A stretch of DNA of 64,000 nt from an uncultured Candidatus Saccharibacteria bacterium. Lineage in GTDB: Bacteria; Patescibacteriota; Minisyncoccia; Phycocordibacterales; CSBR16-119. The stretch spans positions 10,469 to 74,468 of the forward strand of contig CAZPVH010000004.1 of the NCBI GenBank assembly GCA_964589975.1, given 5' to 3'. The translations under genes were made by a program, and so were the position numbers. The notes under the pieces are model-generated. The model saw nothing but the letters and a program-made list of their open reading frames with translations, searched no databases and had not been told where the DNA came from. Shown here one piece after another: positions 4,612 through 27,031 of the stretch (positions within the stretch are counted from its first letter, which is position 1; every line of letters starts with the position of its first letter).

Positions 4612-7600
4612 ATGAATTTGGAATCTAGAAAAACCAAAGATTTGGGTGAGTTGGCCGATATTCTAAAAACGGCCGAAGCAGAGGATCGGCAGAAGGAGGG
4701 AGTAAGGGCGATGGAGGAGGTCCAAGCTCGGGCCAGAGAAGAAGCCGAAAAGGATAAAGCTGCAGAAAATGTACAGATCGATGTTTCAGGAGTTGAGCCG
4801 GAAGTTACCCAAGAATTCGAAAAGTCTCAAGAACAGCACGGAGGGTACAGATGGGAGAACGGTGACGGGAAGACTTTTCAGCCTCTTTTAAAACAAATAG
4901 ACCGTATCGCCTTGGAAGAACTCACTAAGGCCCAGATAAAGAAATATGCTGAAGAGATCGCCAAGGGGAATTATCCTTCTAAGGCAGGGTCCATAAAATT
5001 TTTTAATGAACACGAACAAGAGATAGACCGAGAGGTGCAGATCATAAAGGCAAAGGATAAGGAAGCAAATCTAAAGGAGACTATTTCAAATAATTTTCCA
5101 AATAGTGAGAAGCCTTCTGGGGCAACCGAGAAGAAGTCGAGTGGTGTTGGCCGCATGAGGTTCGACGGCACTGATCCTTATGGACTTCGGATAAATAAGC
5201 AGATCAGGTATTCCAAATCACCTGAAAATTCAGCCAAATCTGCAGAAACTACAGAATCAGCATTTGCAAGATGGGATGGGAAGCAAGAAAGGATTCATCT
5301 TGAGCCCGGTTCGCAAGTTCGGGCTGGTTCGATTGAGGCGGAGCGCGAACCTGTTGGCCGGCCGGAATCTTTTAAGTTGGACACAAAACCAGAAGGCCTA
5401 CCCAAAGAAGCTCCACGATTTGGAGAGGTGGAATCTCATGCCAGGGCTGGAGGAAAGACCATAATTAGTGAGAAAGCCCCTGCCGCGCCAACTGCTGCTC
5501 CGGAAAAGCCTAACGGGAAGGAACGAGTGGAGAAACCGGTTATTGAAAGGACAGAGGCACCTAAGCCTAATCCTGCGTCAGAAAGACTTCAAACGCCAGC
5601 TGCTGCATTTGAGGGGCGAACGGAAACGAAGTCTGAATCAAATAAGGAGCTTGACGGTCTTGTTCAATTCAATCTCGGAAAATTTGGCATTATTAACGGC
5701 AATGATACCGAAGAAGCTAAGGGCCTCAAGATGGCAGAACTTCGCCGTGAAATACCAGAGTTCTTTGCTCTCTCGTCAGCACAACAGCTCTATGCCCTTG
5801 AGAAGCTTAGTCAGAAAAAGTCACACAATCTAGATGTGGAGACCAAGCGAGCTATCAAAGACGCTGACGCCACTAATAAGAAGGGCGGAATATTCGGACG
5901 TATTGGACGAGGTCTCACCAGAACTGGACGCACTGCGACGCTTCGCAAAAAAACATTGGAAGAGATGAAAAAGGGCGGTCTTGCAAGCTATAAAGAAGAT
6001 CTTCAGGGAATTGCTGGATTCACGCTTGCTCGCGGCAAACAGATCGAGGTTGGAGAGAAGGGTATGGTTATAAAATTCGTTAATCGCGGTGAAGAGGTAG
6101 AAGGAAAGCATGGAAAAATCATAGACGCGTATAACCGCGCTGCCACAGCTTTGGCCGAAACGCCGTACGTTCACACAACAGGCGATCTTACGCCTCTTGA
6201 AATAGTGGCCAGAAATAAATTCAAAAAGGCGGAAAAGGCTTTTGAGGCGGCACGAGCAGAACTTATGGCGTTCGAAGGAAAGGGTCTTCCGCCAGAAGAG
6301 ATGAAAAAGAAAGTTCTTGAATTCTCAAACCTCGATGATGATATTCGTCTGAACCAGGCATACTCATATGATTCAAAAGATCTCTACGGCGATACAAGCA
6401 TTTGGAACAAGATGGGCCAGATCGCGAATGATTACAAGATAACCGAAAAGGGCGGTTACGCTCTATCCGGTTTCGCGGCACGAACAATGGGCAAATACGC
6501 TCTTGGACTCGGCGGCGGCGTAGTCGCGTCTTCATTTATGGGAGGACTCCGCGGCTGGATAAGCAAGCGTCAGGAATTCAAAGAACTTGCAGAGCGAAAA
6601 CGCTCGGGCGATGACGTTAAAGGCAAAGAAGCTGTCGGGGTTAAAGAGGTTATTGACGGCGCTAGCTATGCGGCAAAGATAGACAAGCTTATTGCCGAGA
6701 TAGAAAACGCAAAAAGTCCGAAGCGAGACGCGCTCATCCAGAGTTTGCAGAACCGAGTTATGATTGCGCGCGAGCGTGATGAAATGGGACTTGTAAACTT
6801 TGGCAAAGCTAACAAAGAATTGGCGGCGAAATATGACTTCTTCCGAGCGCTGAAGGCTGCCAATAGAATTCTTCTTGAAACTGATCCGGAGGTCATGAAG
6901 ACGGCTGATGCTGTGGCGGAAAGAATGCAGTCGCTCTATTTCAAAGATGAAATAAAAGATGTAGAAAAGAAAAAAGCGATCAAGGCATCAATCAAGCGTG
7001 GCGCTATAGCTGGGGCAGGATTCTTTGTCGGAGGCTTTATTGCAAACGACCTGGCTTTCCATAATGGCGAATGGACGAAAGGCGCTATCAAAGATGTATC
7101 TGACCTGAGCGAGAAGGCTCTTGGAGAGCTAAAAGAATTCGCCAAGGAAGCAAACGCAGCAGCGAATGTGCAGTTTGCGAAACTGGGAAGACTTGGCCTT
7201 GACGCTATAGACGGAAACAGCGCCATGAATCCTGAAGCTACAGGCATCAATAAGCCTAGTTTCCATAAAGTTGAAGTCATGCCGGAAATTCCACGGCTTG
7301 AGCAGACGTTTTCTATGGTGGGCGGACGAGGAGCGATTGGCGCTATCGATGAACTTCAGGAGAAACTTCTGGCTCGCTATGGCGAGAACATGCCGGAGAA
7401 TTTGAAAGCCTTTATGGCGGCCAAGCCGGAGAAGCTCGCGATTGATTGGGGCTTTTATCGCCCAGGCGAAGAGGCTGAGAGCGCCGCTGTTATGAAAGGC
7501 GCGAAGTTTGGTATTACAAACGAAGGCCAGATTACGTTTGAAGATCATGAGGGCAATGTTGTCAGACTTGGTGGCGGCGAGAAATTTGCCGGCCGAATGT

Positions 7601-8775
7601 ATGACGGTAGTCCAAAGGCGGCAGCTGCCATCGTTGACGAGACCCCGCGAGTTGATTTTGCTGACATTGAGGCGCAGCACCAGGCGACTGGCTGGGAACA
7701 TCAGAACGCTGGTACCGGCGAAATATTCTCAAGAGAAGTTCCTATGCAGCCTGGAATGGGCGGGGCGAATGCGGAGCTCATGGCTTCGACAAGCGGTGGT
7801 CCTGTCGGAGCTGAAACTATTGGCACCATCTCTGGCGTGCCGCCTGAAGGAATGTCAGTCGCGACCCCTGAAATACGGGGAACAGTGGTGGCCAAGTACG
7901 ACGACTTCGGTCGCGTGACTCGCATGGCGTGGGCGCCGCAGAGCAGGATTGATGAAGTCGTAAAATTCAAAGCGACTCCTGATAAATTCCTAGTTGATGA
8001 CCTGGAGCACTCAGGTCTTAAGTACCCGACTCGCTCTTTTGGCACATCAGAGCTTCGAAATACCGAGATGACAAAATACTGCATCTCATATCTTGAGTGG
8101 CGAAACATGCTGAAGTCAGGCGGTTTCCAGCCGGGATCACCGGAGTATAACTACATCACCGGTCAGATGAGACTAGTTGGCTCAGCTATCGAAGCCAAGT
8201 CGGGAGCAATCTTCCGTCCGATCCAAGAAGACGGGATTCTCCGAGGCCTCAAGGCTCCAAGAATAGAAAATATCCCGACAGCTCCAGCGAGTCCGATGCC
8301 ACCAGAGCCGGAAATGCCCAGCGCCAAGGCGCCGGCCCCGGTAGAAGATTTCACCGGTCGCCCAGGCTCATCTGAAGTATTGAAATTCCAGGATGGGAAT
8401 GGGGTAAAAGCCAAGCTTGAATTCTTGAAAGACGAGAACGGAAAGATATATGGCATCGGCAAGGAAAGCGGTATGAAAACGCCTTTTGATAATAATTCCG
8501 AGAAGTTCTTGGAAGATAATTGGAAAGACTTGGCAAAGGCCGAGGCTGAGGCCAAGGGCAAGGATCTTAGAATATTTGAGAAGCAGATAGAGCTCCGAGC
8601 AAAGAACTACGTCCAATACGAAACCCTGATCAAAAGCAGCTTCTTCAAAGATCTTCCGCCAGATGGTCAGGAAGTTATCAAGCAAGAATTGGCGAAAATA
8701 GTGAGTCGCTATGACAAATTCCTCAAAAATGAGCAATATGCCGATATCGCGGCATCTATAAAGGGCAGATCATAA
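4612..8775 (+). CDS. very large (1387 aa) acidic coiled-coil hypothetical protein
   Basis: Single uninterrupted ORF, highly charged K/E-rich, one internal hydrophobic Gly-rich segment, no recognisable catalytic motif. Confidence 0.6.
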   Translation: MNLESRKTKDLGELADILKTAEAEDRQKEGVRAMEEVQARAREEAEKDKAAENVQIDVSGVEPEVTQEFEKSQEQHGGYRWENGDGKTFQPLLKQIDRIALEELTKAQIKKYAEEIAKGNYPSKAGSIKFFNEHEQEIDREVQIIKAKDKEANLKETISNNFPNSEKPSGATEKKSSGVGRMRFDGTDPYGLRINKQIRYSKSPENSAKSAETTESAFARWDGKQERIHLEPGSQVRAGSIEAEREPVGRPESFKLDTKPEGLPKEAPRFGEVESHARAGGKTIISEKAPAAPTAAPEKPNGKERVEKPVIERTEAPKPNPASERLQTPAAAFEGRTETKSESNKELDGLVQFNLGKFGIINGNDTEEAKGLKMAELRREIPEFFALSSAQQLYALEKLSQKKSHNLDVETKRAIKDADATNKKGGIFGRIGRGLTRTGRTATLRKKTLEEMKKGGLASYKEDLQGIAGFTLARGKQIEVGEKGMVIKFVNRGEEVEGKHGKIIDAYNRAATALAETPYVHTTGDLTPLEIVARNKFKKAEKAFEAARAELMAFEGKGLPPEEMKKKVLEFSNLDDDIRLNQAYSYDSKDLYGDTSIWNKMGQIANDYKITEKGGYALSGFAARTMGKYALGLGGGVVASSFMGGLRGWISKRQEFKELAERKRSGDDVKGKEAVGVKEVIDGASYAAKIDKLIAEIENAKSPKRDALIQSLQNRVMIARERDEMGLVNFGKANKELAAKYDFFRALKAANRILLETDPEVMKTADAVAERMQSLYFKDEIKDVEKKKAIKASIKRGAIAGAGFFVGGFIANDLAFHNGEWTKGAIKDVSDLSEKALGELKEFAKEANAAANVQFAKLGRLGLDAIDGNSAMNPEATGINKPSFHKVEVMPEIPRLEQTFSMVGGRGAIGAIDELQEKLLARYGENMPENLKAFMAAKPEKLAIDWGFYRPGEEAESAAVMKGAKFGITNEGQITFEDHEGNVVRLGGGEKFAGRMYDGSPKAAAAIVDETPRVDFADIEAQHQATGWEHQNAGTGEIFSREVPMQPGMGGANAELMASTSGGPVGAETIGTISGVPPEGMSVATPEIRGTVVAKYDDFGRVTRMAWAPQSRIDEVVKFKATPDKFLVDDLEHSGLKYPTRSFGTSELRNTEMTKYCISYLEWRNMLKSGGFQPGSPEYNYITGQMRLVGSAIEAKSGAIFRPIQEDGILRGLKAPRIENIPTAPASPMPPEPEMPSAKAPAPVEDFTGRPGSSEVLKFQDGNGVKAKLEFLKDENGKIYGIGKESGMKTPFDNNSEKFLEDNWKDLAKAEAEAKGKDLRIFEKQIELRAKNYVQYETLIKSSFFKDLPPDGQEVIKQELAKIVSRYDKFLKNEQYADIAASIKGRS

Positions 8776-13079: not shown

Positions 13080-15356
13080 ATGTTTTTTATGACTGGACGC
13101 AAAGCTCTGAAAATAATCCTCTCGCTTTTCCTTATAGCAACAATCATGGCGCCAAACGCCCTGCCTTTTTCCGCGAAGTATGCTGCGGCCCAAAGCGCAA
13201 ATGGGGAGCTAAGCGGTTCAGCTGGGACGGGCTTCAATGCTGGGGGAATAATCGCTTCGGCCATCTCGTGTTCTGGTCTCATGGATAAACTGGCTAGTGC
13301 GCTCTCAAGCCTTTTTTCGGTCACCGAAGTTCCGGTCGGCGACGCAGGACTCCGAACAAAGGAGAACTGCATGGACGCTATCGTCCATCAACTCGTAGTT
13401 ATGATCCTCGACAAGATTACGCTTGCGACTGTTGACTGGATTAATAGCGGTTTCGAGGGTCAGCCGCTATATCTTTCTGATCCTGAAGATTTTTTCACAA
13501 ATATTGCCCAGGATGAAATCAATCGTGTTACTGGTTGGTATGGTTGCACGACTGGAAATGTGAATTGCGGCGAAGACTATCCTTTCGGTCAGATTGTCAT
13601 GAGTAATATCATATCGACAATTCAAAGTCAGCTGGCAGCCAATGTCAGATTTTCACTAAACCAGGTTTTGGCTCACGGAACATACGAAGAATACAAGTTT
13701 GATTTCAATGTCGGTGGCTGGGCCGGGTATACAGCCATGCTTCAGCCTAACAACAACATTTTCGGCAACAATTTACTTATTAACAAAGAACTCGGTCGCA
13801 GGATTGGCGGTACATCAATGACTATCAGTCAGAATTTCAAAGCCCAGGTTACTGAGTCCGGAGGTTTTTTGAATCAGCGACGTTGTGTCCTTACCGCTAC
13901 AAACGATCCTGGCGACTACTATATTCCTAAAGACGACGAGATGCATGTTCCTCCTGGAGGACCAATTCCGCAGGCGGTTTACAATGCCGCCAATATGAAC
14001 GGCCCGTACGACGTGCCGACCGAGACGCAACAAGCAACCCTTACCGAGTACACTCTTCGGAGCGAATGCAAAGAGTGGCGCACGACAACTCCCGGAAACA
14101 TCGTCTCGAGCAAAATTACCAGCGCTCTTAACATTTCTGATAACAAATTGATCCAAGCCGATGAAATTTCCGAGAGCCTCGGCCTCATCTTTGACGCGCT
14201 CATCAACCAGCTTGTGAATACCGGCCTTGAATCCCTGAGCTCCTTCGCTTCGAGCGACGGAGGCGGCGGAGGACTCAACAGCGTCTTGGTGGCCCAGGTC
14301 AACGGCGAGCAGCCAGGACAAGTGACGAACGGACAGGCTCCACCTCCGGCTATTGATGCCATTACCGGTACAGGTTACTCGCAAGAGCCGCTACTTTTGG
14401 TACAGCAGCAGTATATCCAGCTTGCTCAACAGGCTGTTCCACAGCTTGATACCCTTATGAAGAAAATACGGGCGCTTGATTATTGTGTTCCTGGACCTCA
14501 TCCTTCTTGGCTTGACGAAGCAGAGGAAAATTTCCAGAACGTGCTTCTGTCCGTACAGCCGTTTGTTTCAAGTAATCCTGATTCCGGCGATGCTGAAGAA
14601 GAAAATCAGTCCTATTATGCCGCTGCCATTAATACCATTACCGGAATCAATATCTCTGAAAGTCCCGCGATGCATAACCATACGCAGTTCACGGCGTTTA
14701 TGAATAACGTCTTTAACAAGTACGCGGCCAGGATGCAGGATACTGCTAACATGGGCTACAGCAGGTTCTTGGCGCCGCCGGCGACTCGAGTTTTCTTGCA
14801 GAACCTGATGGATGAAATGGAAACCTACCAGACGACCTATGATAATTTGAATGAATATTTGACCAACATTACTTCATATATGCCGCAACTGATACAAATT
14901 GACGCTGCGCTCAACGATTTGGCTGATGGAAATGGAGGCGTCTTGGACGAAGATGATCCGCAGGTCCAGGCGCAAATCTCTTTGTTTAATAGTATTTCCG
15001 ATCACTTTGCCACAGAGGCTCAGCTCGACTACCTGGAGGTTAATTATGTTCTATATCAGAACCGTGAGACAACGGTTAATAGTCATATAAACAGTTGCTT
15101 GGCCGAAACGGTGAACGTTCCGTATCAGCCGGATCAACGAGTCATGTATCCGACTCCGATCCTGCCAACATACCAGCAGAACGATGGCGCCGAAATACCT
15201 ACTAACATGCCGAATTTCGATGACGCTTTCCTTCCGGGTGTTGATTTTACAGACAACACTAACGGTGGAGATATCGATGTCTCGTTCGAAAATGTTCAAA
15301 TTATTGGTTCTGAGCCTCTTACCATCTTTGAAACGGTTCTGCAATCAGTCTATTAA
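13080..15356 (+). CDS. large secreted hypothetical protein (758 aa)
   Basis: Signal peptide; Gly/Asn/Gln-rich; lies in the T4SS-like cluster. Alternative start at 13089. Confidence 0.6.
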   Translation: MFFMTGRKALKIILSLFLIATIMAPNALPFSAKYAAAQSANGELSGSAGTGFNAGGIIASAISCSGLMDKLASALSSLFSVTEVPVGDAGLRTKENCMDAIVHQLVVMILDKITLATVDWINSGFEGQPLYLSDPEDFFTNIAQDEINRVTGWYGCTTGNVNCGEDYPFGQIVMSNIISTIQSQLAANVRFSLNQVLAHGTYEEYKFDFNVGGWAGYTAMLQPNNNIFGNNLLINKELGRRIGGTSMTISQNFKAQVTESGGFLNQRRCVLTATNDPGDYYIPKDDEMHVPPGGPIPQAVYNAANMNGPYDVPTETQQATLTEYTLRSECKEWRTTTPGNIVSSKITSALNISDNKLIQADEISESLGLIFDALINQLVNTGLESLSSFASSDGGGGGLNSVLVAQVNGEQPGQVTNGQAPPPAIDAITGTGYSQEPLLLVQQQYIQLAQQAVPQLDTLMKKIRALDYCVPGPHPSWLDEAEENFQNVLLSVQPFVSSNPDSGDAEEENQSYYAAAINTITGINISESPAMHNHTQFTAFMNNVFNKYAARMQDTANMGYSRFLAPPATRVFLQNLMDEMETYQTTYDNLNEYLTNITSYMPQLIQIDAALNDLADGNGGVLDEDDPQVQAQISLFNSISDHFATEAQLDYLEVNYVLYQNRETTVNSHINSCLAETVNVPYQPDQRVMYPTPILPTYQQNDGAEIPTNMPNFDDAFLPGVDFTDNTNGGDIDVSFENVQIIGSEPLTIFETVLQSVY

Positions 15357-15448
15357 GGATAAAAGGTCGGATTTGCACACATTAGAGCCCCGGAAACGGG
15401 GCTCTGGTGCTATAATCTCCATATGCTTGCGCCTTTTGCGCACGATTA

Positions 15449-17788
15449 ATGAAAAAGAAATTCGGCATTGCCATAATGTTTTTTTCGATTGTTCTTGGAA
15501 CTGTTTTTGTTCCGGCTTTTTCAGCATATGCTCAGGCCAATGTCGACACATCTGACTACAACGACTATGAAGCAAGGCTTCAGGATTGCGGGGTTCTGGG
15601 AGATTCCAACCTGACAGCCTGTCTTGTCGAGGCTTTGTATTACTTGGTGCTGACGCCTTCGGCTTGGTTCGCCCGCGTGACTGGTGAACTGTTCGATTAT
15701 TTCGTCCAGTATTCCCTCGACACGAATTCATACCGTGGGAATGACAATTTTATTGAACGCGGTTGGTCTATAGTTCGTGATATTGGAAACGTCCTATTTA
15801 TCTTTGCTCTTCTTTATATTGCCATCACGCACATACTCCAAGCTGGTACGTCAGGGACAAAGAAATTTCTAATCAATCTCATCATTGCGGCGCTGCTGAT
15901 TAACTTCTCGCTCTTTTTCTCTCGCGTCATCATAGATGGTGGGAATGTTCTGGCTCGCGCGTTCTATAACAACATAGAGATCCCGAATGACGACAACCTG
16001 CAGTATCACACTATCTCCCAGGGAATCGTGATGCATGTTAATCCGCAGCGCCTGCTTGGCTCCGAACTTTTTACGCCAAAATATTCGAGTGATCCTGATG
16101 TGCCAGAAGGAAAAGTCGATAACGGGTATGCGGCACTAATTCTCGGTATGGCCACAGCAGTCAATATTGTCATGGGGATCACGTTTCTCTCTGTTGCGCT
16201 TCTCTTCGTTGGTCGCGTTGTGGGACTATGGTTCTTGATGATCTTCTCGCCGTTTGCGCTGGCTTCTATTGCTGTTCCAAATTCCGGCAAGATCTTTGGT
16301 CAGTTTAGCTGGAGCGGCTGGATCGATCAGATATTGAAGCTTTCATTCATGGCGCCGGTCTTCCTGTTTTTCCTCTTTCTCCTCATCATGTTCCTCCAAA
16401 TCATTTTCCAGACGAACGTATCTGACGCTGACAAGACGACAGTGCAGTGGATTCTCGATGTTGTCATACCATTTGTCATGGTCATATTTATTCTCAATAA
16501 GGCAAAGAAAGTCGCGGCAGACATGGCTGGGGAAGCGGGCAGCGCGGTCAAGAGCGCGGTTGGTTCTGCCGCAGGGTTTGCTGTCAGCACTGTGGGTCTC
16601 GGTATTGGGGCTACAGCATACATTGGCCGTAATACTGTCGGTAGGCTCGCATCTTCGTCGATAAAACGTCAACAGTTCCAAGAACGAGTTGCTTTGAATA
16701 ATATGAAAGCCAAGGAGTCTGAGCGAAAAGCTGAACAAGCTACGAACGAAAAAGAACGGTTGGCTCATATTCGTGACGCAGAAAAAGCTCGAGCAGCTGC
16801 GGTAAGAAATGCGATGGTTGTCAATCGAATGGATAAATTTAGAAAGGGTAGCTGGGATATCAGGAAGACCGACTGGATGAAGAAACAAGGAGGCCTGGCC
16901 GGAGTTGCTTATGATGTTGGCGCGAAAGCGGGTGGCTGGTCAAAGTCTCTGGCAGGGGAGTTATTTGATTCAAAGACTAAACTTGATATCGGTAAAGCCA
17001 AAGACACGAGTCGTTCGAAATACGAGGAGGATCAGAAAAAGAAGGATCTTGAAAAGGCAAAACTTTATGATGTGCAGGATCGAGGTGATCTTGAAATGAT
17101 CAAATACGAAGCGCGCAAAGGCTTGAATGGCAAGACGGAAGCTATAGAACGCATTGATGAATACATAGAAGAAACTACTAATTCCAAGAAGATTACAGAA
17201 ACGGAAAGAGAGAGACGGCTTAAAGATGCAGAGAATTGGAAGAAGGCGCTGGTCGCTGCTGTCACTGATAAGGATGTTATAGATGTTATATCGGGTAAAA
17301 AAGCTCAAGAAATTGATAATCCTGCATATCAAGATCTGAAAGAATCGCTGGAAGAGAAGCAGACTCGCAGAAATGAACTGCAGGCAATAAAAAAACGCGA
17401 AGGAAGACTCTTGCCTGAAGAGGAAAGGGAGTTGAATGGACTAGATGGAGAAATAGCGGCAACTAATTTGGAATTGAAGAAAACGAAACAAAAGATAGCT
17501 GACCCTGACAACCCTGGTTATTCTGGCGTTGAAGATCACGCGAAAACAATAGCGGGACAAGCAAGAGACGGCTACGCCACCATTGTTGAGAATAAAAATA
17601 TTACCAACGATATATTTAATCTTGGGGTAGGAAAGAGGGAAGCTGCGGCCAGGGCTGATGAAATAAGACGAGGCGTAAAGCCAGATGACTGGAAAGACAA
17701 GTTCAAGAAACTAGCAAAAGAGGTTGGAATGGATGAAAAACCAAAAGATGAACCAAAGTCTGATGATGGAGGAGGTGATAAAAAATAA
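15449..17788 (+). CDS. VirB6/TrbL-like polytopic membrane protein with long charged coiled-coil C-terminus
   Basis: Signal peptide, at least 5 TM helices in the middle third, a Gly/Ala-rich segment, then about 350 aa of K/E-rich coiled coil. Confidence 0.5.
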   Translation: MKKKFGIAIMFFSIVLGTVFVPAFSAYAQANVDTSDYNDYEARLQDCGVLGDSNLTACLVEALYYLVLTPSAWFARVTGELFDYFVQYSLDTNSYRGNDNFIERGWSIVRDIGNVLFIFALLYIAITHILQAGTSGTKKFLINLIIAALLINFSLFFSRVIIDGGNVLARAFYNNIEIPNDDNLQYHTISQGIVMHVNPQRLLGSELFTPKYSSDPDVPEGKVDNGYAALILGMATAVNIVMGITFLSVALLFVGRVVGLWFLMIFSPFALASIAVPNSGKIFGQFSWSGWIDQILKLSFMAPVFLFFLFLLIMFLQIIFQTNVSDADKTTVQWILDVVIPFVMVIFILNKAKKVAADMAGEAGSAVKSAVGSAAGFAVSTVGLGIGATAYIGRNTVGRLASSSIKRQQFQERVALNNMKAKESERKAEQATNEKERLAHIRDAEKARAAAVRNAMVVNRMDKFRKGSWDIRKTDWMKKQGGLAGVAYDVGAKAGGWSKSLAGELFDSKTKLDIGKAKDTSRSKYEEDQKKKDLEKAKLYDVQDRGDLEMIKYEARKGLNGKTEAIERIDEYIEETTNSKKITETERERRLKDAENWKKALVAAVTDKDVIDVISGKKAQEIDNPAYQDLKESLEEKQTRRNELQAIKKREGRLLPEEERELNGLDGEIAATNLELKKTKQKIADPDNPGYSGVEDHAKTIAGQARDGYATIVENKNITNDIFNLGVGKREAAARADEIRRGVKPDDWKDKFKKLAKEVGMDEKPKDEPKSDDGGGDKK

Positions 17789-17797
17789 AATAAGATC

Positions 17798-18466
17798 ATG
17801 ACGGTAACATCACCTGACAAGTTAATAGAAGAACATTTGGCATCCCTGCCTGAGCCTATTAAAAAGGCCATCGCTTCTTTCGACTGGGCGAGGGAGGTCT
17901 TCGATATTGGTCGAAAGCATAACATGCATATCGATCGCATTGGCGAGCTTCAAACTGAAGTCATGCTTGTCGTATTGGGACTCATTTCTCCTCGGGATTT
18001 CCAGACTGAACTAATGGAGCGAATCGAGCCTAATCACGATATTGCTATAGAAGTTTCTGACGAGGTGAATAAACGCGTCTTTATCCGGATCCGGGAATTC
18101 ATGAAAAAGTATTATGAGGACGACGGCACGCCAAAAGCTGTGGCGGAACCACCCGACGCCATAAAATCCGCCGAGAAAAAGGTGCTTAATGGCGCGGGAA
18201 TTCGGCTTGAGGGCGACCCTGAGCCTGAACCAGCGAAAATCACCATGGGTCCCGCGTCCATTTCGTCCGAAGAAGATGGAATCATCTCGCTTGGATCGTA
18301 TGATGACTCTGATTCGGCAGCGCCAACTCCGAAAATAGATCCGATCGTGCAGAAAGTCGCGCAGACGATGGAGAAACAGGAAGTCAGACCGTCGCCAATC
18401 ACTGTCATCAAGGCCGAGAATGCGCCAAAAGGTTTTTTGGATCCGTATAGAGAAGTTGTTGAGTAA
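17798..18466 (+). CDS. hypothetical cytoplasmic protein
   Basis: 222 aa, acidic, no recognisable motifs. Confidence 0.5.
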   Translation: MTVTSPDKLIEEHLASLPEPIKKAIASFDWAREVFDIGRKHNMHIDRIGELQTEVMLVVLGLISPRDFQTELMERIEPNHDIAIEVSDEVNKRVFIRIREFMKKYYEDDGTPKAVAEPPDAIKSAEKKVLNGAGIRLEGDPEPEPAKITMGPASISSEEDGIISLGSYDDSDSAAPTPKIDPIVQKVAQTMEKQEVRPSPITVIKAENAPKGFLDPYREVVE

Positions 18467-18916
18467 GTAGAAAGTAGTAAGTCGTAAGTCGCACGAACGA
18501 TGAACGAGCAAATAAAAAGAGGGCACAAGGATCTTGTAGTATGGCAAAAGGCCATGGACTTGGTCGAGGAAATTTATAAGTTGATTAAAGAGCTTCCAAA
18601 GGATGAGAAGTTTAATCTGGTTTCACAGATAAGCAGATCAGCTGTATCTATACCCTCAAATATTGCCGAAGGGTATAGAAGGGGGTCTGATAAATCATTC
18701 AAACAATTTTTATTAATTGCCTTCGGTTCAAGCGCCGAACTTGAAACTCAAATTGAGCTGGTCAAGAGACTGGTTTTAGCCCCCAATTTTGATTTTAAAG
18801 CAGTTGATAATCTCTTGTCTGACACCATGAGATTACTGAACGCTTTCATAAAGAAACTAGGTTGATCAAAGAGTTATCCGTGCTACTTACGACTTCCGAC
18901 TTCCAACTTACTGCGT
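18461..18916. repeat. IVS-like hairpin element: heptamer-repeat inverted repeats enclosing the four-helix-bundle gene
   Basis: Left arm GTAAGTAG-AAAGTAG-TAAGTCG-TAAGTCG-CACG (18461–18499). Right arm CGTGCTACTTACGACTTCCGACTTCCAACTTAC (18879–18916). The proximal stem pairs about 17 of 20 nt. Confidence 0.5.
18500..18865 (+). CDS. four-helix-bundle protein (23S rRNA intervening-sequence protein family)
   Basis: 121 aa; WQKAMDL...ELPKDEKFNLVSQISRSAVSIPSNIAEGYRRGS...ELETQIELVKRL matches the TIGR02436-type family. Confidence 0.8.
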   Translation: MNEQIKRGHKDLVVWQKAMDLVEEIYKLIKELPKDEKFNLVSQISRSAVSIPSNIAEGYRRGSDKSFKQFLLIAFGSSAELETQIELVKRLVLAPNFDFKAVDNLLSDTMRLLNAFIKKLG

Positions 18917-18928
18917 TATAATTAACTC

Positions 18929-19345
18929 ATGCGTTTCCAGGTTCCCCAATTCATCGACATCGAAGACAAGATCTTCGGACCGTTCACGTTCAAGCAGTTC
19001 GTCTATTTGGCGGGCGGCGCCGGCGCGTCTTACGCCATTTTCAAGCTTTTGCCTATCTACATCTCCGTTTTGCTTATCTTGCCGATCCTTGGAGTCGCCA
19101 TGGCACTTACTTTTTACAAAGTGAACGGCAAGCCGTTCATTGATATCCTCCAAGCCTGGTTCATATACACCTTCAAATCGAAGCTTTTCATCTGGAAGCA
19201 GCGCAAGGTCGAGAAAAAGAAAGAAGTTGTAGAAAAGAAGCCAGAAGCTCATCCAATGTCGAACATTCCAAAGCTTACGGAGTCGCGTCTCTCAGATATT
19301 TCTTGGAGCCTAGATGTCCTAGACATGCAGCAGAAGGATAAATAA
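18929..19345 (+). CDS. PrgI/VirB3-like small membrane protein of Gram-positive-type T4SS
   Basis: 138 aa; FQVPQFIDIEDKIFGPFTFKQFVYLAGGAG plus two TM helices, typical of the PrgI family; TATAAT-N6-ATG promoter. Confidence 0.6.
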   Translation: MRFQVPQFIDIEDKIFGPFTFKQFVYLAGGAGASYAIFKLLPIYISVLLILPILGVAMALTFYKVNGKPFIDILQAWFIYTFKSKLFIWKQRKVEKKKEVVEKKPEAHPMSNIPKLTESRLSDISWSLDVLDMQQKDK

Positions 19346-19351
19346 TTTTTT

Positions 19352-19996
19352 ATGGCACTTAATGCAAGAGCATCACAGCAGTTCGTTCCGATAAAAGAGA
19401 TCCAAGATGGGATCGTCGTTTTGAAAGACGGCGGTCTTCGGGCAATTCTCATGGCTTCTTCCATTAACCTTTCTCTAAAATCGGAGGATGAGCAAACTGC
19501 GACGATCATGCAGTTCCAAAATTTCTTGAATACGCTCGATTTTTCCATACAGATCTCGGTGCAGTCGAGGAAATTCAATATCACAAACTATGTAGCCCTG
19601 CTTGAGGGTCGGGTTAGGGAGCAGACCGAGCCGCTTCTAAAGATTCAAACTGAAGAATATATTAAATTCATTAAGGATTTTACCGAAACGACCAACATTA
19701 TGACCAAGCACTTTTTCTTGGTCATACCCCTAATGCCACTCAAAGGTGCTGACGGTGGTCTAATGGACAAAGTGCTGCCGGCGAATAAAACAATGACGCG
19801 CGCAGAGAAGGAAGAGGCTTTTAGCGAGGAGCGCTCACAACTTGAACAGCGTATTGCCGTTGTTGAACAGGGACTTTCTCGCATTGGCGTCCGAACTCTT
19901 CAGCTCAAAACGGAGGATGAGGTCGAATTGTTTTATCGCGTCTTCAATCCGGGCGACGCCGAAAGTCCGATTGATATAACTAATCAAGACAAATAA
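19352..19996 (+). CDS. VirB4/TrbE-family conjugal-transfer ATPase, N-terminal domain fragment
   Basis: IPIKEIQDGIVVLKDGGLRAILMASSINLSLKSEDEQ is the typical N-terminus of Gram-positive VirB4 (PrgJ/TcpF/Orf16-like). It ends at a TAA in frame with the next ORF. Confidence 0.6.
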   Translation: MALNARASQQFVPIKEIQDGIVVLKDGGLRAILMASSINLSLKSEDEQTATIMQFQNFLNTLDFSIQISVQSRKFNITNYVALLEGRVREQTEPLLKIQTEEYIKFIKDFTETTNIMTKHFFLVIPLMPLKGADGGLMDKVLPANKTMTRAEKEEAFSEERSQLEQRIAVVEQGLSRIGVRTLQLKTEDEVELFYRVFNPGDAESPIDITNQDK

Positions 19997-19999
19997 TTT

Positions 20000-22072
20000 A
20001 TGGGACTTCTAGATCTCCTCTCGGGGAAAAAACCAAAGAATCCGAAGAAAGAAATCCTGCCGGTATTGCCGGAAGAGATTTATCAGGCTGCGACTTTGGA
20101 GCTTCAGGATATTTTGGCGCCGTCGGCTCTTAAAATATCGCCGAAGGCCCTGAATCTCGGCGACAAAATCGCCCGAACGTATTTCGTCATTTCATACCCA
20201 AGGTTCCTATCAGACAATTGGTTCACTCCAATCATAAACCTCGACAAGATCTTCGATATTGCGATCCACATCCATCCCTTGGATACGAACACCATTCTCC
20301 GAAAATTTCAAAAGAAAGTGGCTGAGGTTCAGAGTCAGGTTAATGTTAGAGAATCAAAAGGCCTTGTGCGTGATCCGGTTCTCGATACGGCGTATCAGGA
20401 TCTTGAAGCTCTTCGTGACTCTTTGCAACAGGCTCAAGACAAGATGTTCGACGTTGGACTCTACATCACCATTTACGCGGATTCCATGCCGGAGCTTTCG
20501 AAGATTGAGAATGAAATCAAGTCGATCCTGGAAGCCAAGCTTGTCTATATCAAGCCAGCGCTATTTCAGCAGGATGTTGGTTTCAATAGCGTGGCGCCGC
20601 TTGCGACAGACTTCTTGGCTGTTCATCAGAAGATGAATACCGAGCCTCTTTCATCCATCTTTCCATTCGTCTCTTTCGATCTTTCGTCCGACAAGGGAAT
20701 TCTTTACGGCATAAATCGTCACAACTCTTCTCTGGTTATTTTCGACCGCTTTTCGCTCGAAAACTATAACTCGGTCACGTTTGCCAAGTCCGGTTCGGGT
20801 AAATCATATTCAACCAAACTAGAGATTCTCCGAACGCTCATGTTCGACGCGGAAGTCATCGTGATCGACCCCGAGAGGGAATACGAATATCTCTCTGAGG
20901 CCATTGGTGGCCGGTATTTCAATATTTCGCTCTCGTCCGAACACCACATCAACCCTTTTGATTTGCCTATTCCGACCGCCGATGAGACGCCGGAAGACGT
21001 TCTTCGCGCCAACACTATCCAGCTGGTTGGAATGTTTCGTATCATGCTCGGGGGCCTCACTCCGGAGGAAGACGCGATTATCGACAAGGCTGTGACAGAG
21101 ACCTACGCTCTAAAAGACATCACGTCAGATTCGGATTTTGCAAACATAGAGCCGCCTCTCCTTTCTGATTTCGAAATGGTTCTCGGTGGAATTGAAGGCT
21201 CAGACTCAATCATGACTCGGCTAGCCAAATACACGAAGGGTTCCTGGAAAAATTTCATTAACCAGCCGACAAACGTTGATATTAACAAGCGTTTTATCGT
21301 TTTCTCTGTTCGCGACATGGAAGACGATTTGAAGCCGGTTGCGATGTATATCGTCACGCACTTTATCTGGAACGCCGTCAGGAAGAATCTCAAAAAGCGC
21401 CTGCTTATCGTTGATGAGGCCTGGTGGATGATGAAGAGCGAAGATACTGCTTCCTTCCTTTACAGTATCGCCAAGCGAGGACGAAAATACTTCCTCGGCC
21501 TCTCAACCATCACTCAGGACGTGAATGACTTCGTGGAGAGCCAGTACGGCATGGCTATTGTCACGAACTCTTCGATGCAGCTACTCCTCAAGCAGTCCAC
21601 GAGCTCGGCCGACGCTCTCCAAAAAGTCTTTAACCTGACGGACGAGGAAAAATATCTCCTGCTCGAATCGGAAGTCGGCGAGGGCATCTTCTTTGCGGGC
21701 TTGAAGCATGTTGCCATAAAGGTCATTGCCTCATACACCGAAGATCAGATCATTACTTCGGACCCATCCCAGGTTTTGGCGATCAAGAAGGCTAAAGAGC
21801 AATTCCGAGAAGACGAAAAGGAGTTCGTGCGTACGGAAGGCGAACGTTTGGCAGGGGCCATGAATATTGAAGAAAGGCCAGAACCGACGTCATCTCCGGT
21901 CGAAGAATCGCCGACTAGACCCGCACAAGTTGTGGCTGAGCCAGAAAATCCAATTCCTCCCGCAAAGTCTACGGGGCCGAGGCCTCAGACAGAAACAGAG
22001 AATCTGGCCGAAGAGAGCGAGGGGCTGTCTGACGAGATTGATGATTTGGAGAAGATGTTTAAAGAATATTAG
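20000..22072 (+). CDS. virB4: VirB4/TrbE-family type IV secretion ATPase (ATPase domain)
   Basis: Walker A FAKSGSGKS, Walker B LLIVDEAWWMM, conserved VirB4 C-terminal motifs; acidic C-terminal tail. Confidence 0.85.
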   Translation: MGLLDLLSGKKPKNPKKEILPVLPEEIYQAATLELQDILAPSALKISPKALNLGDKIARTYFVISYPRFLSDNWFTPIINLDKIFDIAIHIHPLDTNTILRKFQKKVAEVQSQVNVRESKGLVRDPVLDTAYQDLEALRDSLQQAQDKMFDVGLYITIYADSMPELSKIENEIKSILEAKLVYIKPALFQQDVGFNSVAPLATDFLAVHQKMNTEPLSSIFPFVSFDLSSDKGILYGINRHNSSLVIFDRFSLENYNSVTFAKSGSGKSYSTKLEILRTLMFDAEVIVIDPEREYEYLSEAIGGRYFNISLSSEHHINPFDLPIPTADETPEDVLRANTIQLVGMFRIMLGGLTPEEDAIIDKAVTETYALKDITSDSDFANIEPPLLSDFEMVLGGIEGSDSIMTRLAKYTKGSWKNFINQPTNVDINKRFIVFSVRDMEDDLKPVAMYIVTHFIWNAVRKNLKKRLLIVDEAWWMMKSEDTASFLYSIAKRGRKYFLGLSTITQDVNDFVESQYGMAIVTNSSMQLLLKQSTSSADALQKVFNLTDEEKYLLLESEVGEGIFFAGLKHVAIKVIASYTEDQIITSDPSQVLAIKKAKEQFREDEKEFVRTEGERLAGAMNIEERPEPTSSPVEESPTRPAQVVAEPENPIPPAKSTGPRPQTETENLAEESEGLSDEIDDLEKMFKEY

Positions 22073-22075
22073 GAA

Positions 22076-22245
22076 GCTCCGCAGAATGCTTATTTAGGAA
22101 TCCTCCGAGATGCGCGCCCTCCATCCCTCGTAGCCCTCGGAATGGAGAAAACTGGCGCGCCCCCTCACGAAAAAGCTCCTAAAAGGGAGCTTTTTCTGCG
22201 GGTTCGTTCTCGGATTCCTAAATAAGCACTCTGCTCCGCGGAGAG
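22076..22245. repeat. MITE-like palindromic intergenic element (family 1, long copy)
   Basis: 21-bp TIR AGAATGCTTATTTAGGAATCC / GGATTCCTAAATAAGCACTCT with nested GC-rich hairpins. Internal CTGCGGGTTCGTTCTCGGATTCC is conserved with the copy at about 43.8 kb. Flanked by direct GCTCCGC on both sides. Confidence 0.5.
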
Positions 22246-22314
22246 CGGAGAGGTCTCAATAGTTTTCCTACTAGCAGCTTATAACTTCGGACTCGGTTTT
22301 GATATAATATTCCC

Positions 22315-22899
22315 ATGAATCAAGACAATACGGACCCGAAGACTATCAACTCTGATGACCAGAATACGATGGCTGATGCGGGCGTCGACATAACCGGCGG
22401 ATCGGGGGAGAATATTGCCGAAGGCGAGAAGGAACAGGCGTCGGAAGTCATGGATATTGATAGTTCGGCAGATGATGCTACGGCTGAAAAGGCCGGCATA
22501 AAGTTCGTCCAAACCGACAAAACTGATTTATCCGCGATGGCTGAGGCCAAGCAGAAAGCAGCATCTGACTCAAGGGCTCTAGAAGCTGAGTTTAAGGCGG
22601 AGTTTCCGGATTTCAAGGGTCCGCTTAAACCAGAATCAGAAAATGCTGTTATGGGTAAAGTAACTTCGCTCGGAACACTCCTTGCTAAAATTCAGGAAAA
22701 GCTTGGCTTAAAGAAGACATCGGTCCGGGAAGAGCTTGGAAGTCTCAAAAAGATGAAGGATGCTATCGGAAAAGACATTGAAGAGATCAAGGAGCTTGAG
22801 AGTTCAGAGCAAAAGATTAAAGAAGAGATTGGCAAAATTGAGTCCATTAGGAAAGAGGTAGAAGATATAGAAGAGAAGCTCGGAGAAGATTTGAAGTAG
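22315..22899 (+). CDS. acidic coiled-coil hypothetical protein
   Basis: 194 aa, very acidic; preceded by the same TGATATAAT-N6-ATGAAT module as the gene at 4612. Confidence 0.55.
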   Translation: MNQDNTDPKTINSDDQNTMADAGVDITGGSGENIAEGEKEQASEVMDIDSSADDATAEKAGIKFVQTDKTDLSAMAEAKQKAASDSRALEAEFKAEFPDFKGPLKPESENAVMGKVTSLGTLLAKIQEKLGLKKTSVREELGSLKKMKDAIGKDIEEIKELESSEQKIKEEIGKIESIRKEVEDIEEKLGEDLK

Positions 22900-23893: not shown

Positions 23894-25393
23894 ATGAGCA
23901 GATCTGCATACAAAAAAATAATTACAGTCGCATTCTTTTTCACCATCGCGGTTGTTTTTATGCCGAGCAAGGCAGACGCAGCGTGTGCAGTTAGTAGTGT
24001 TGCAATGCGTCCGAATGGTGTTCAGCCGACTCAGACAGGCGACACAGATCCGCCAACTCCGGATGATTTTCCAGGACCTAACAATCCGTATAGGAATGAG
24101 AATACGGGTTACGGGAATGAGGGTTATAATGACGACAATCCAAACTTTCCACCGTTTGTGTATGCGGATGTTAGTACCTCTGGCTGTACAAATGATTCTT
24201 TAATTTTTTCGGTAAAGACTCACGTCGAGGCTACTGACGGCGTTGAGGCAGTCCTAGAAGAGATTGTTGTCGTAACGACAAATTCCGATTACGTGTATAT
24301 GCCTGGCCATACGGCCCACAGTAGCTCTTTTACAGTAGCTTACCGCGCGGGTGATCGTTACTGTACAGCTGAAGATTCGGTTTTTGATTGTCAGATATTT
24401 CTTGAGATAAAAAACTCCGATGGTCAACTTTTGTTTTCAAAAGGCACCGCTCAACAGCCAACTCTTTTGTATGAATGTGAATTACCCTGCGGACCCACCG
24501 GCGCAAATTGGCTTTTTGTCGGAGTTCAGGATTTTGGAGTCTCGCTCGACGCGCCGATGGGTGTTGATTTAGGAGACTTTGATTACTTCACTGAGGGGTA
24601 CGACCAGTATCTGGCTCCGTTACCAGGATTCACTGCAACGACCACATCAACCCTAGGCGGTTTTCTGAAAGGTCTTTTCACCGTCCTCGTCATGGTCGCC
24701 GGCATACTGGCATTTATTATGCTTGTGCTTGGTGGTATTACTTATGCGACCGCCGACGCGATCAGCGGGAAAACCAGTGGCAAGGAAATGATGCTAAATG
24801 CGGTCTTGGGACTCATTATCGCTCTTGGAGCATGGGTGATTCTAAACAGCATAAATCCGAACCTGGCTTCAAACCTCTCGATAACCATTCCGAAAGCGAA
24901 CTTCATTCCACGTTACGAGCCTGAAACCGGAGTTGGTGAAAACGTTGAGACGATCACTCTGAACCTTGTTGGCGGCGGCACCACAACCATGACAGCCTGC
25001 GACGAAACGAAAATTGTGCCCATAACAGCCTTTGGTAAGACTTTCCGAATACATCAGGGCCTTGTTACAAATATTCAGGCTGTCGAACAGCAGTGGCTTG
25101 CTATGCCAGAAGATCAGCGCTATAAGATAACCTCGATCGGCGGTTATAATTGTCGAAAGGTTAAAGGTACTCAAACATGGTCGAGTCATGCTTTCGGTAC
25201 TGCAGTTGATATAAATCCGAACAAAAATCCTTTTACCAGCGGACCATTGGTAACCGATATGCCGCCAAGCTTTGTTCAGCTCTGGACAAGTCATGGGTGG
25301 GGCTGGGGAGGAGGTTGGGATAGTGTGAAAGACGCTATGCACTTCAGTAAATATCCGACAGCCGAAGATGGAGACGCTACAATTTCACCATAA
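23894..25393 (+). CDS. membrane-anchored peptidoglycan hydrolase, peptidase M15 (VanY/L-Ala-D-Glu peptidase-like) domain
   Basis: Signal peptide, long central hydrophobic segment, C-terminal SSHAFGTAVDINPN...DAMHFS zinc-binding H-x6-D...H motifs; functional analogue of VirB1/PrgK/TcpG. Confidence 0.65.
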   Translation: MSRSAYKKIITVAFFFTIAVVFMPSKADAACAVSSVAMRPNGVQPTQTGDTDPPTPDDFPGPNNPYRNENTGYGNEGYNDDNPNFPPFVYADVSTSGCTNDSLIFSVKTHVEATDGVEAVLEEIVVVTTNSDYVYMPGHTAHSSSFTVAYRAGDRYCTAEDSVFDCQIFLEIKNSDGQLLFSKGTAQQPTLLYECELPCGPTGANWLFVGVQDFGVSLDAPMGVDLGDFDYFTEGYDQYLAPLPGFTATTTSTLGGFLKGLFTVLVMVAGILAFIMLVLGGITYATADAISGKTSGKEMMLNAVLGLIIALGAWVILNSINPNLASNLSITIPKANFIPRYEPETGVGENVETITLNLVGGGTTTMTACDETKIVPITAFGKTFRIHQGLVTNIQAVEQQWLAMPEDQRYKITSIGGYNCRKVKGTQTWSSHAFGTAVDINPNKNPFTSGPLVTDMPPSFVQLWTSHGWGWGGGWDSVKDAMHFSKYPTAEDGDATISP

Positions 25394-27031
25394 TTGTTTA
25401 TGAGAAACTCAAAAGCATTCAAAATTCTAGCTTTCATCGCGCTCTTCCTCCTCATTATCTTTTCTTGGATTCTCTGGAAAGACGCGCAGGAAAAGAAAAT
25501 TCGCGAGACGCCTCGCAATTCCGGTATCGAGGACCCGTTTGGGGCAGGGGCGGTGGATACAGAGCTCCCAAGCTCCGGCAGCGCTAATCAAGGTACGGGT
25601 ACTACCGGCGGCCAGGATATTCCTGTCTCAAATCCGGTTCCTGATCAGTCGGTAACGGTCGTCGAAGATAGTCCTGCTCTCAGGCAGATTTCTGACAAGC
25701 CGGTTGCCGGCGCTACATTTGTCGTAGAAGAGCGAATAATTCCGGAAGAAGAGAGCGCAACGCCTGCCACAGGACTTATTGAGGTTTATGATTTCTCGGG
25801 GTATAAGACTATCCGTTTTGGTGACAAGGCTGATGAAATTATTGCCATCAAGACCGTACTCAATCGTCAAACGCCTTCGCCGGGACTTACAATAAACAAT
25901 GATTACGATACCGACATGAAGAACGCGACTGTCGATTTTCAGAATAGGTCTGGGTTGCCGGGAGATGGTGTGATTGGCCCGAAGACTTATCAGAAGCTCA
26001 ATTTGCTTCAGGGTATTACCGCTTTTACTTCCACAAAAAAGCCGGCTAACAAGGAATTTGTTCTGATGGCTCGGTTCGTCGATTCCGTAAGCGGCACAGT
26101 TCACGATAGAGCGGTTAGGAAAATGGAAGAAGAGAAAGCCGTGACGAAAACGAGCGTGCCGCGCGTAGTAGAAGCATTCTTTGATTCGACCGGCACAAAT
26201 ATCATCATGCGCTATCTCAAAGATAATATTATCGAAACATATCTCGCTAAACTTACTTTTCCAAAGATTGATCCAAACCTGACTCAAGAAGAGAAGGATA
26301 AGGTGTCTAAAGCCGCTCAAGTTTCCGGAGAGTTTCTTCCGGAAAACATCGAGACGGTTTCCATCTCGCGCGACAAGAAAAGCTTTTTCTATCTGAACCC
26401 TGTGGCGGGCGGTGTGGCCGGTATCACTTATAATTTTGCGACCAAAGCGAAGAAGCAAATTTTTGAAAGCCCTCTTTCAGAGTGGCTGGCTGATTGGGGA
26501 AGCGATGGAAAGATTTCTCTTACTACAAAGGCTTCAGGCTTAGTTCCAGGGTACTCGTATACTATAGATTCAAAGGTCGGTACCATGGCTAGACTTATCG
26601 GCGGCGAAAAAGGCCTGATGACACTTCTCTCGCCTGATGGTAAAAAACTACTTTACTCGACATTTGTGAACTCAAGTATTGAGACATTTATTTATGACCT
26701 TGCCGCTGGAAAATCAACAGGTATATCTCCGGCGGCGCTGCCAGAGAAGTGTGTATGGTCCAAGGATTCTAAAAATGTTTACTGCCTTGCGCCGATCAAG
26801 GCTATGTCCGGAAACATGCCTGACGATTGGTATAAGGGCAAGGTAACGTTTGACGATGCGCTCTGGGTCACGGATCTCATAAACTATAACGGCAACATTA
26901 TCTATGATTTCAAGGCGAAGTCCGGCCAAGGAATCGATGCTGTAAATCCAGTCATGAATGCAACGGAAGATTACATTCTATTCAAGAATAGGAAAGACGG
27001 GACGCTTTGGGGGTACGACTTGAATAAGTGA
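25394..27031 (+). CDS. membrane-anchored protein with peptidoglycan-binding domain and TolB-like beta-propeller region
   Basis: N-terminal TM helix; PG_binding_1-like motif DFQNRSGLPGDGVIGPKTYQKL; SPDGKKLLYS-type propeller repeats. Confidence 0.55.
   Translation: MFMRNSKAFKILAFIALFLLIIFSWILWKDAQEKKIRETPRNSGIEDPFGAGAVDTELPSSGSANQGTGTTGGQDIPVSNPVPDQSVTVVEDSPALRQISDKPVAGATFVVEERIIPEEESATPATGLIEVYDFSGYKTIRFGDKADEIIAIKTVLNRQTPSPGLTINNDYDTDMKNATVDFQNRSGLPGDGVIGPKTYQKLNLLQGITAFTSTKKPANKEFVLMARFVDSVSGTVHDRAVRKMEEEKAVTKTSVPRVVEAFFDSTGTNIIMRYLKDNIIETYLAKLTFPKIDPNLTQEEKDKVSKAAQVSGEFLPENIETVSISRDKKSFFYLNPVAGGVAGITYNFATKAKKQIFESPLSEWLADWGSDGKISLTTKASGLVPGYSYTIDSKVGTMARLIGGEKGLMTLLSPDGKKLLYSTFVNSSIETFIYDLAAGKSTGISPAALPEKCVWSKDSKNVYCLAPIKAMSGNMPDDWYKGKVTFDDALWVTDLINYNGNIIYDFKAKSGQGIDAVNPVMNATEDYILFKNRKDGTLWGYDLNK

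Follow-up and report, generated by a model that had tools for sequence, protein, structure and literature searches.

An in-frame stop codon most probably marks the boundary between trsD and virB4, and not an interrupted gene, in a chromosomal type IV secretion locus of a Patescibacterium

Introduction

The most abundant component of the type IV secretion systems (T4SSs) of Patescibacteria is TrsD, for which 2,272 homologues have been recorded, 1,664 of them encoded by genes adjoining virB4 (Quiñonero-Coronel et al. 2025, Microb Genom, PMC12102498). TrsD shares a remote homology with the part of VirB4 nearest its N-terminus, according to Guglielmini et al. 2014 (PMC4027160) as cited in PMC12102498. 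It has no assigned function, and the TrsD homologue of Candidatus (Ca.) Southlakia epibionticum ML1 is listed as essential (PMC12102498). The T4SS locus SEML1_0006-0019 of Ca. Southlakia epibionticum is likewise essential, and neither coupling proteins nor relaxases can be recognised in it (Wang et al. 2023, PMC10633639). Here we describe a gene pair of this kind on the forward strand, at positions 19352-22072, of a 64,000-nucleotide stretch (contig CAZPVH010000004.1 of assembly GCA_964589975.1; hereafter the window) from an uncultured Ca. Saccharibacteria bacterium. A sequence-only reading of this DNA had presented the region as a VirB4 ATPase interrupted by a single in-frame TAA, and had offered three explanations: a genuine two-polypeptide VirB4, a nonsense mutation or pseudogene, or stop-codon readthrough. 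The premise of an interrupted gene turns out to be misleading, since trsD-virB4 is the standard gene pair of this lineage, and one already known from published work.

Results

The first of the two open reading frames (ORFs), ORF1 (19352-19996; 214 amino acids), begins with ATG and ends with TAA at 19994-19996. It is followed by a spacer of three nucleotides (nt), TTT, at 19997-19999, and then by ORF2 (20000-22072; 690 amino acids), which begins with its own ATG and ends with TAG at 22070-22072. The coordinates and the shared frame noted in the sequence-only reading are exact: the two starts are 648 nt (216 x 3) apart, and when 19352-22072 is translated straight through a single internal stop is met. 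We consider it very probable that ORF1 (trsD) and ORF2 (virB4) are both real genes, each translated separately, and that they belong to a chromosomal T4SS of the monoderm type (like the FATA class of mating-pair formation, MPF-FATA) in a Patescibacterium. The frame that they share is a coincidence.

Evidence for this comes from the comparison of orthologous loci, which the sequence-only reading had itself proposed as a check. The loci were drawn from GTDB species representatives, of which 559 were confirmed and 80 kept, 79 of these holding both genes. In every one of the 79 the genes are separate, with TAA, TAG or TGA closing the ORF1 homologue and a separate ATG opening that of ORF2. The spacer between them has a median of 7 nt and extremes of -8 (the genes overlapping by 8 nt) and 447 nt, and the frame offset is 0, 1 or 2 at 21, 37 and 21 loci respectively. 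The in-frame pairs thus make up 27% of the total, with no enrichment over the one third expected (one-sided binomial p = 0.92); the excess of the +1 offset is probably due to the popularity of spacers of 1 nt and 4 nt, together with shared ancestry. Five close relatives give the same picture. The closest, L084, with an ORF1 homologue 96% identical, has a spacer of 5 nt (TTTTT) that places the genes out of frame; L085 (91%) has 81 nt; L086 (90%) and L004 (82%) each have a single T; and L002 (83%) has the same TTT as here. In all five the TAA and the ATGGG are invariant while the spacer between them varies, and the N-terminus of ORF2 (MG...) is conserved among relatives. Stop and start are therefore conserved while spacer and frame vary freely, as would be required of a conserved boundary between two genes.

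The longer spacers (40-120 nt) are often built of short tandem or inverted repeats, as in L009-L011, L015, L024, L035, L037 and L065, and at L085:6643-6723. CTTACTA is repeated in L085, AGCTAAAAGCTAA occurs in L009-L011, an inverted repeat CCCGTTAGAAGC...GCTTCTAACGGG occurs in the spacers of L015 and L024, and GTTATAAAGTTCATAAAG occurs in those of L035 and L065. These repeats look like small intergenic elements that insert at the trsD-virB4 boundary in different Patescibacteria.

Homologous proteins retrieved with either ORF have the same organisation. The best 120 homologues of ORF1 are 179-251 amino acids long (all but two of them 203-228) and the best 120 of ORF2 are 599-712 amino acids long, and none is fused. 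When the best 150 representatives after clustering at 50% were examined, 149 proved to be standalone proteins of 146-443 amino acids, and a single one, P0344, is an apparently fused protein of 797 amino acids. ORF1 is matched by residues 5-214 of P0344, and residues 35-600 of ORF2 by residues 230-796, the latter with 54% identity.

The fused gene comes from a metagenome-assembled genome (L087:544-2937; GCA_964615945.1, CAZTUR010000004.1) and has PrgI upstream; the presence of rnpA, yidC and dnaA nearby places it close to the origin. Its linker reads ...GRQG-MGGVASIE..., and the internal Met-Gly may be the former start of VirB4, which would suggest that fusion occurred by loss of a stop codon.

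Both ORFs are intact, and their patterns of substitution relative to homologues were assessed with our own implementation of the NG86 method. The proportion of nonsynonymous differences (pN) is 0.02-0.2 across both ORFs (0.03-0.2 for ORF1), against a proportion of synonymous differences (pS) of 0.72-0.91. Because pS is at or above saturation, no numeric ratio of substitution rates (dN/dS) can be given, and it can be stated only that pN lies far below pS; ORF1 and ORF2 alike are under strong purifying selection. These values bear directly on the proposal that a single-chain virB4 has gained the TAA in this genome and is now decaying or non-functional. Such a gene might well leave two ORFs in one frame with only TAA-TTT between them, and the fused 797-amino-acid homologue indicates that a single-chain form is viable. 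But the stop stands at the same place in 79 of 79 related species, and likewise in five close assemblies of independent origin, pN is far below pS, the ORF2 N-terminus is conserved behind an invariant ATG, and all 240 of the best homologues, taken with either ORF, are standalone. The explanation by nonsense mutation or pseudogene is refuted by this combination of a conserved stop and start with purifying selection, and the probability that we would still give it is negligible. The first of the three explanations originally offered, a genuine two-polypeptide VirB4, is by the same evidence strongly supported.

Since the window is apparently of metagenomic type, and the databases contain no identical protein (the best match being 96% identical), it might also be supposed that the TAA is an error of assembly or sequencing and that the real gene is continuous. 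A TAA that aligns with the one here, and after it ATGGG, is however found in independent assemblies of different samples (Logan SRR32119641, SRR25018320, GCA_054403375.1, L002 and L004), and this gene-pair architecture holds throughout the lineage. An artefact can accordingly be given next to no credence.

The character of the junction itself was judged against other junctions in the window. There are 17 adjacent same-strand gene pairs whose spacer does not exceed 15 nt. Nine of them are in frame, no more than expected by chance; these include prgI and ORF1 as well as pairs of unrelated ribosomal-protein genes. The pattern is therefore no evidence of gene interruption elsewhere, and an in-frame stop followed by a short A/T spacer and an ATG is a routine operon junction in this genome. 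The spacer between prgI and ORF1 is 6 nt long (junction TAATTTTTTATG), so that a single frame holds prgI, ORF1 and ORF2. Of the 50 genes in the window 36 end in TAA, most genes have no Shine-Dalgarno-like motif upstream, and TAA-(A/T)n stands before many starts. The A/T-rich start context to which the sequence-only reading had drawn attention at ORF2 is real; it contains no Shine-Dalgarno motif, and contexts of this kind are general across the genome. A scan of 17500-22500 for promoters and terminators gave none above shuffled expectation and none at the ORF1/ORF2 junction. Over the whole window, no Rfam family was detected at gathering thresholds and no tRNA gene by ARAGORN, though a ribosomal-protein operon is present at about 50-64 kb; there is therefore no RNA element at or near the junction.

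These observations, with those on the related loci, decide against programmed readthrough or recoding of the TAA to give a fused VirB4 of about 905 amino acids, whether this were the working product or a second, regulated isoform. The in-frame spacer of 3 nt, present both here and in L002, speaks for such a mechanism, but the frame is not kept among relatives, with just 21 of the 79 loci in frame and spacers extending to 447 nt; the 96%-identical relative has a spacer of 5 nt and others of 1 nt; the same stop codon ends most genes of the window, and the short junctions that are in frame there include some between unrelated genes; and the window contains no Rfam element. The random relation of the frames and the out-of-frame arrangement in so close a relative refute readthrough as an explanation, and we regard it as extremely improbable, if marginally less so than a decayed gene or an artefact. 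The TAA may leak a minor fused isoform in this particular genome, an idea to which the comparison of loci lends no support, and trace, unprogrammed leakiness of this kind would have no conserved role.

The assignment of ORF2 is straightforward. It scores 380.4 bits (E 1.7e-113) against the NCBIfam model NF045971 (conju_CD1110), above the curated cut-off of 325 bits, and covers positions 183-733 of the 752 in that profile, so that the N-terminal portion of about 180 positions is missing from it; on the VirB4_plasma profile it covers positions 286-893 of 894. Pfam matches are to PF19044 (P-loop_TraG) and AAA_10. The VirB4 C-terminal domain of Protein Data Bank (PDB) entry 4AG5 aligns with amino acids 230-587 of ORF2 (E 3.6e-43), and residues 446-735 of TrwK align with amino acids 257-553. 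Both motifs for nucleoside triphosphate binding can be read off the translation: Walker A (GSGKS) at amino acids 265-269 (20792-20806), and the Walker B region (IVDEAW) at amino acids 470-475 (21407-21424). By these sequence criteria ORF2 is identified as a VirB4-type T4SS ATPase, in which the second half of the N-terminal domain (amino acids 1 to about 230) is followed by the ATPase domain (about 230-590) and a tail (about 596-690).

The tail, of 95 amino acids (window positions 21785-22069), is acidic and of low complexity, rich in glutamate and proline (21 E, 11 P). It is kept in the closer relatives of ORF2 (674-700 amino acids), while many 80%-identical homologues of about 608 amino acids are without it. 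It is because of this tail that ORF1 and ORF2 sum to about 905 amino acids instead of about 800. The equation of that sum with the canonical length of VirB4, made in the sequence-only reading, does not hold: the core amounts to only about 810 amino acids, near the 797 of the fused homologue.

For ORF1, similarity was found to the N-terminal part that ORF2 lacks. It matches positions 2-115 of the 752 in conju_CD1110 (E 2.5e-7), positions 102-233 of the 894 in VirB4_plasma (E 7e-10), positions 10-182 of the 789 in PRK13853, and positions 16-142 of the 201 in the TrsD/TraD model NF041427 (E 4e-7). The 'TraC-like' Pfam family PF26593 is a precomputed assignment on all of its best 120 homologues (59-96% identical, including P0001 at 96%), and it is solely via these near-identical relatives that ORF1 is linked to the family. 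When a structural model of ORF1 predicted with AlphaFold2 was compared with the PDB using Foldseek, the top 13 matches were all TrwK/VirB4 chains of the R388 T4SS, with probabilities of 0.96-1.0. ORF1, trsD or 'TraC-like', is a standalone protein homologous to the first 180 or so residues of VirB4. On the sequence evidence, ORF1 and ORF2 together make up one VirB4, collinear with the single-chain protein, and this follows from their complementary coverage of the profiles and from the collinearity of both with P0344.

Membership of ORF1 in the staphylococcal-type family defined by NF041427 itself was considered and rejected: the score is 30 bits where 200 are needed, as befits a remote homologue only.

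Several observations nevertheless weigh against this assignment, or against parts of the interpretation built upon it. All of the NCBIfam scores for ORF1 fall far under the curated cut-offs, as the figures just given for TrsD illustrate. ORF1 itself has no match in the local copy of Pfam-A, and a profile of its relatives searched against PDB sequences (hmmsearch) returned nothing, even at E <=10. The AlphaFold2 model, built from an alignment of 19 sequences, is only moderate, with a mean predicted local distance difference test score (pLDDT) of 62 and a predicted template modelling score (pTM) of 0.52, the other four models reaching a pLDDT of 38-42; and its Foldseek matches have E-values of 3e-3 at best and template modelling (TM) scores of about 0.4. 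The contacts of ORF1 with ORF2 and PrgI, and the translational coupling of the two genes, which are taken up in the Discussion, are things that we infer.

These weak scores and missing matches would suit the alternative that ORF1 is an unrelated small protein, encoded upstream of a VirB4 that is simply short at its N-terminus, so that no split VirB4 exists. Yet four independent NCBIfam models place ORF1 either on the VirB4 N-terminus or on TrsD, while ORF2 matches the same models only from about position 183 onward; the leading structural matches are uniformly TrwK/VirB4 and the relatives carry PF26593; the fused P0344 is collinear with both ORFs; and published profile comparisons agree (PMC12102498). 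An unrelated ORF1 is accordingly very unlikely, although it is the least improbable of the four alternatives considered. An absence of similarity between ORF1 and VirB4 N-terminal domains had been named at the outset as grounds for abandoning the two-part VirB4, and similarity was found in the NCBIfam models, with Foldseek and in P0344.

The division of domains first proposed is only approximate: ORF1 is N-terminal and ORF2 contains the ATPase, but the position of the split needs amendment. It falls at about residue 180 of a VirB4 of 750-800 amino acids, within the N-terminal domain; residues 1 to about 230 of ORF2 still belong to that domain, so the split does not coincide with the boundary between the N-terminal and ATPase domains.

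The pair is embedded in a T4SS gene cluster, with PrgI/VirB3 upstream and with pilin/peptidase and peptidoglycan-binding genes downstream. The gene for PrgI, a VirB3-like small membrane protein of 138 amino acids, occupies 18929-19345 on the forward strand (PF12666, E 5e-11, 43 bits against a cut-off of 27), and the place before trsD is also filled by PrgI in L085, L086 and L087 and on Clostridium plasmids. Beyond the cluster lie housekeeping genes, for a UvrD-type helicase, KsgA, ClpP, trigger factor and NusA, and related records carry the name Patescibacteria, Paceibacterota or Nomurabacteria. No relaxase was found among the genes annotated in the window.

Downstream, the forward-strand gene at 23894-25393 encodes a protein of 499 amino acids with a VirB2-like T4SS pilin domain at amino acids 251-318 (PF18895, T4SS_pilin; 26.1 bits, just under the cut-off of 26.6) and a C-terminal M15 peptidase domain (PF13539, Peptidase_M15_4; E 8e-17), pilin and cell-wall hydrolase domains being an unusual combination. 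A gene for a peptidoglycan-binding protein (25394-27031) follows directly, with no spacer. Upstream of the T4SS core, three large forward-strand ORFs of 758, 779 and 1387 amino acids (13080-17788 and 4612-8775) have no Pfam match at E <=0.01; the ORF of 779 amino acids has a conserved counterpart in the same place in both L085 and L086, and could be the divergent VirB6-like or PrgH-like channel component.

Also within the cluster, between a gene for a protein of 222 amino acids and prgI, is a forward-strand gene (18500-18865; 121 amino acids) of the '23S rRNA-intervening sequence protein' family (PF05635, E 7e-37), which is also bAvd-like. A direct repeat, gtaagtcgtaagtcg, lies just upstream of it. 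The gene is found at the same place in L085 (91% identity) and is absent from L086 (90% identity), which suggests a small mobile-like gene that has recently been inserted or lost.

Discussion

For annotation, the consequence is that this pair should not be flagged as a pseudogene, a frameshift or a case of recoding, and that ORF1 should be entered as the TrsD/TraC-like partner of VirB4. The role of a separately encoded N-terminal subdomain in the T4SSs of monoderms and Patescibacteria is a question already recognised in the literature, and the present locus makes it no more tractable.

With trsD and virB4 taken as two genes, a plausible course of events can be set out. The genes prgI, trsD and virB4 would be co-transcribed in that order, and ORF2 would probably be translated by coupling or re-initiation at TAA-TTT-ATG, the usual type of junction in a genome poor in Shine-Dalgarno sequences. 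In TrwK, the VirB4 of R388, the N-terminal subdomain contacts VirB3 and the membrane. TrsD would by analogy supply the VirB4 N-terminal subdomain in trans, and the ORF2 ATPase would through it be docked to PrgI/VirB3 at the cytoplasmic membrane.

It is tempting to suggest that TrsD is kept separate for a role that would be barred to a covalently attached subdomain, such as a different stoichiometry, or an exchange on and off PrgI/VirB3 that gates assembly of the T4SS, a system that is essential and without a relaxase. The near-universal separation of the two proteins, in 149 of 150 representatives and with one viable-looking fusion, weakly supports this, and we put it forward as a speculation that is more likely to prove wrong than right by a wide measure.

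The locus can be compared with several described systems. Single-chain forms are VirB4 of Agrobacterium tumefaciens, TrwK of R388, the CD1110 family of Clostridioides difficile and PrgJ of pCF10: ORF1 and ORF2 between them cover the whole of the VirB4 profile, and the ATPase domain is a typical one. The difference is that the first 180 or so residues are here a separate polypeptide, the fused form being confined in this lineage to one of 150 representatives.

Among systems with two polypeptides, the TrsD/TraD and TrsE/TraE proteins of the staphylococcal plasmids pGO1 and pSK41 (MPF-FATA) likewise consist of a protein of about 200 amino acids encoded upstream of a VirB4-type ATPase of about 650-700 amino acids. 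Those plasmids are conjugative and carry a relaxase and a coupling protein, whereas the present genes are chromosomal, and the similarity is remote. The order PrgI, 'TraC family protein', ATPase is found, as here, on pJFP838A of Clostridium perfringens and pRSJ20_1 of Clostridium botulinum. The Haloprofundus plasmid pMHR1-2 also has a pair of genes for a small protein and an ATPase, but the gene upstream of it is annotated 'type IV secretion system protein' and not PrgI. The small proteins of these three plasmids are 23-28% identical to ORF1 over 85-97% of its length. They differ from it in being longer (261-349 amino acids) and all plasmid-borne, and the junctions with the ATPase gene differ too, comprising a 130-nt gap, an 11-nt overlap (pRSJ20_1) and a 2-nt gap.

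It is with the TrsD-VirB4 pair of other Patescibacteria that the agreement is fullest. There, as here, a small protein resembling the VirB4 N-terminus is encoded next to virB4, with genes for PrgI/VirB3 and a VirB2-like pilin nearby, and the whole is chromosomal and set among housekeeping genes. Nothing substantive separates the present locus from that arrangement: what is local to it is the in-frame spacer of 3 nt, which is due to chance, and the tail of 95 amino acids on ORF2.

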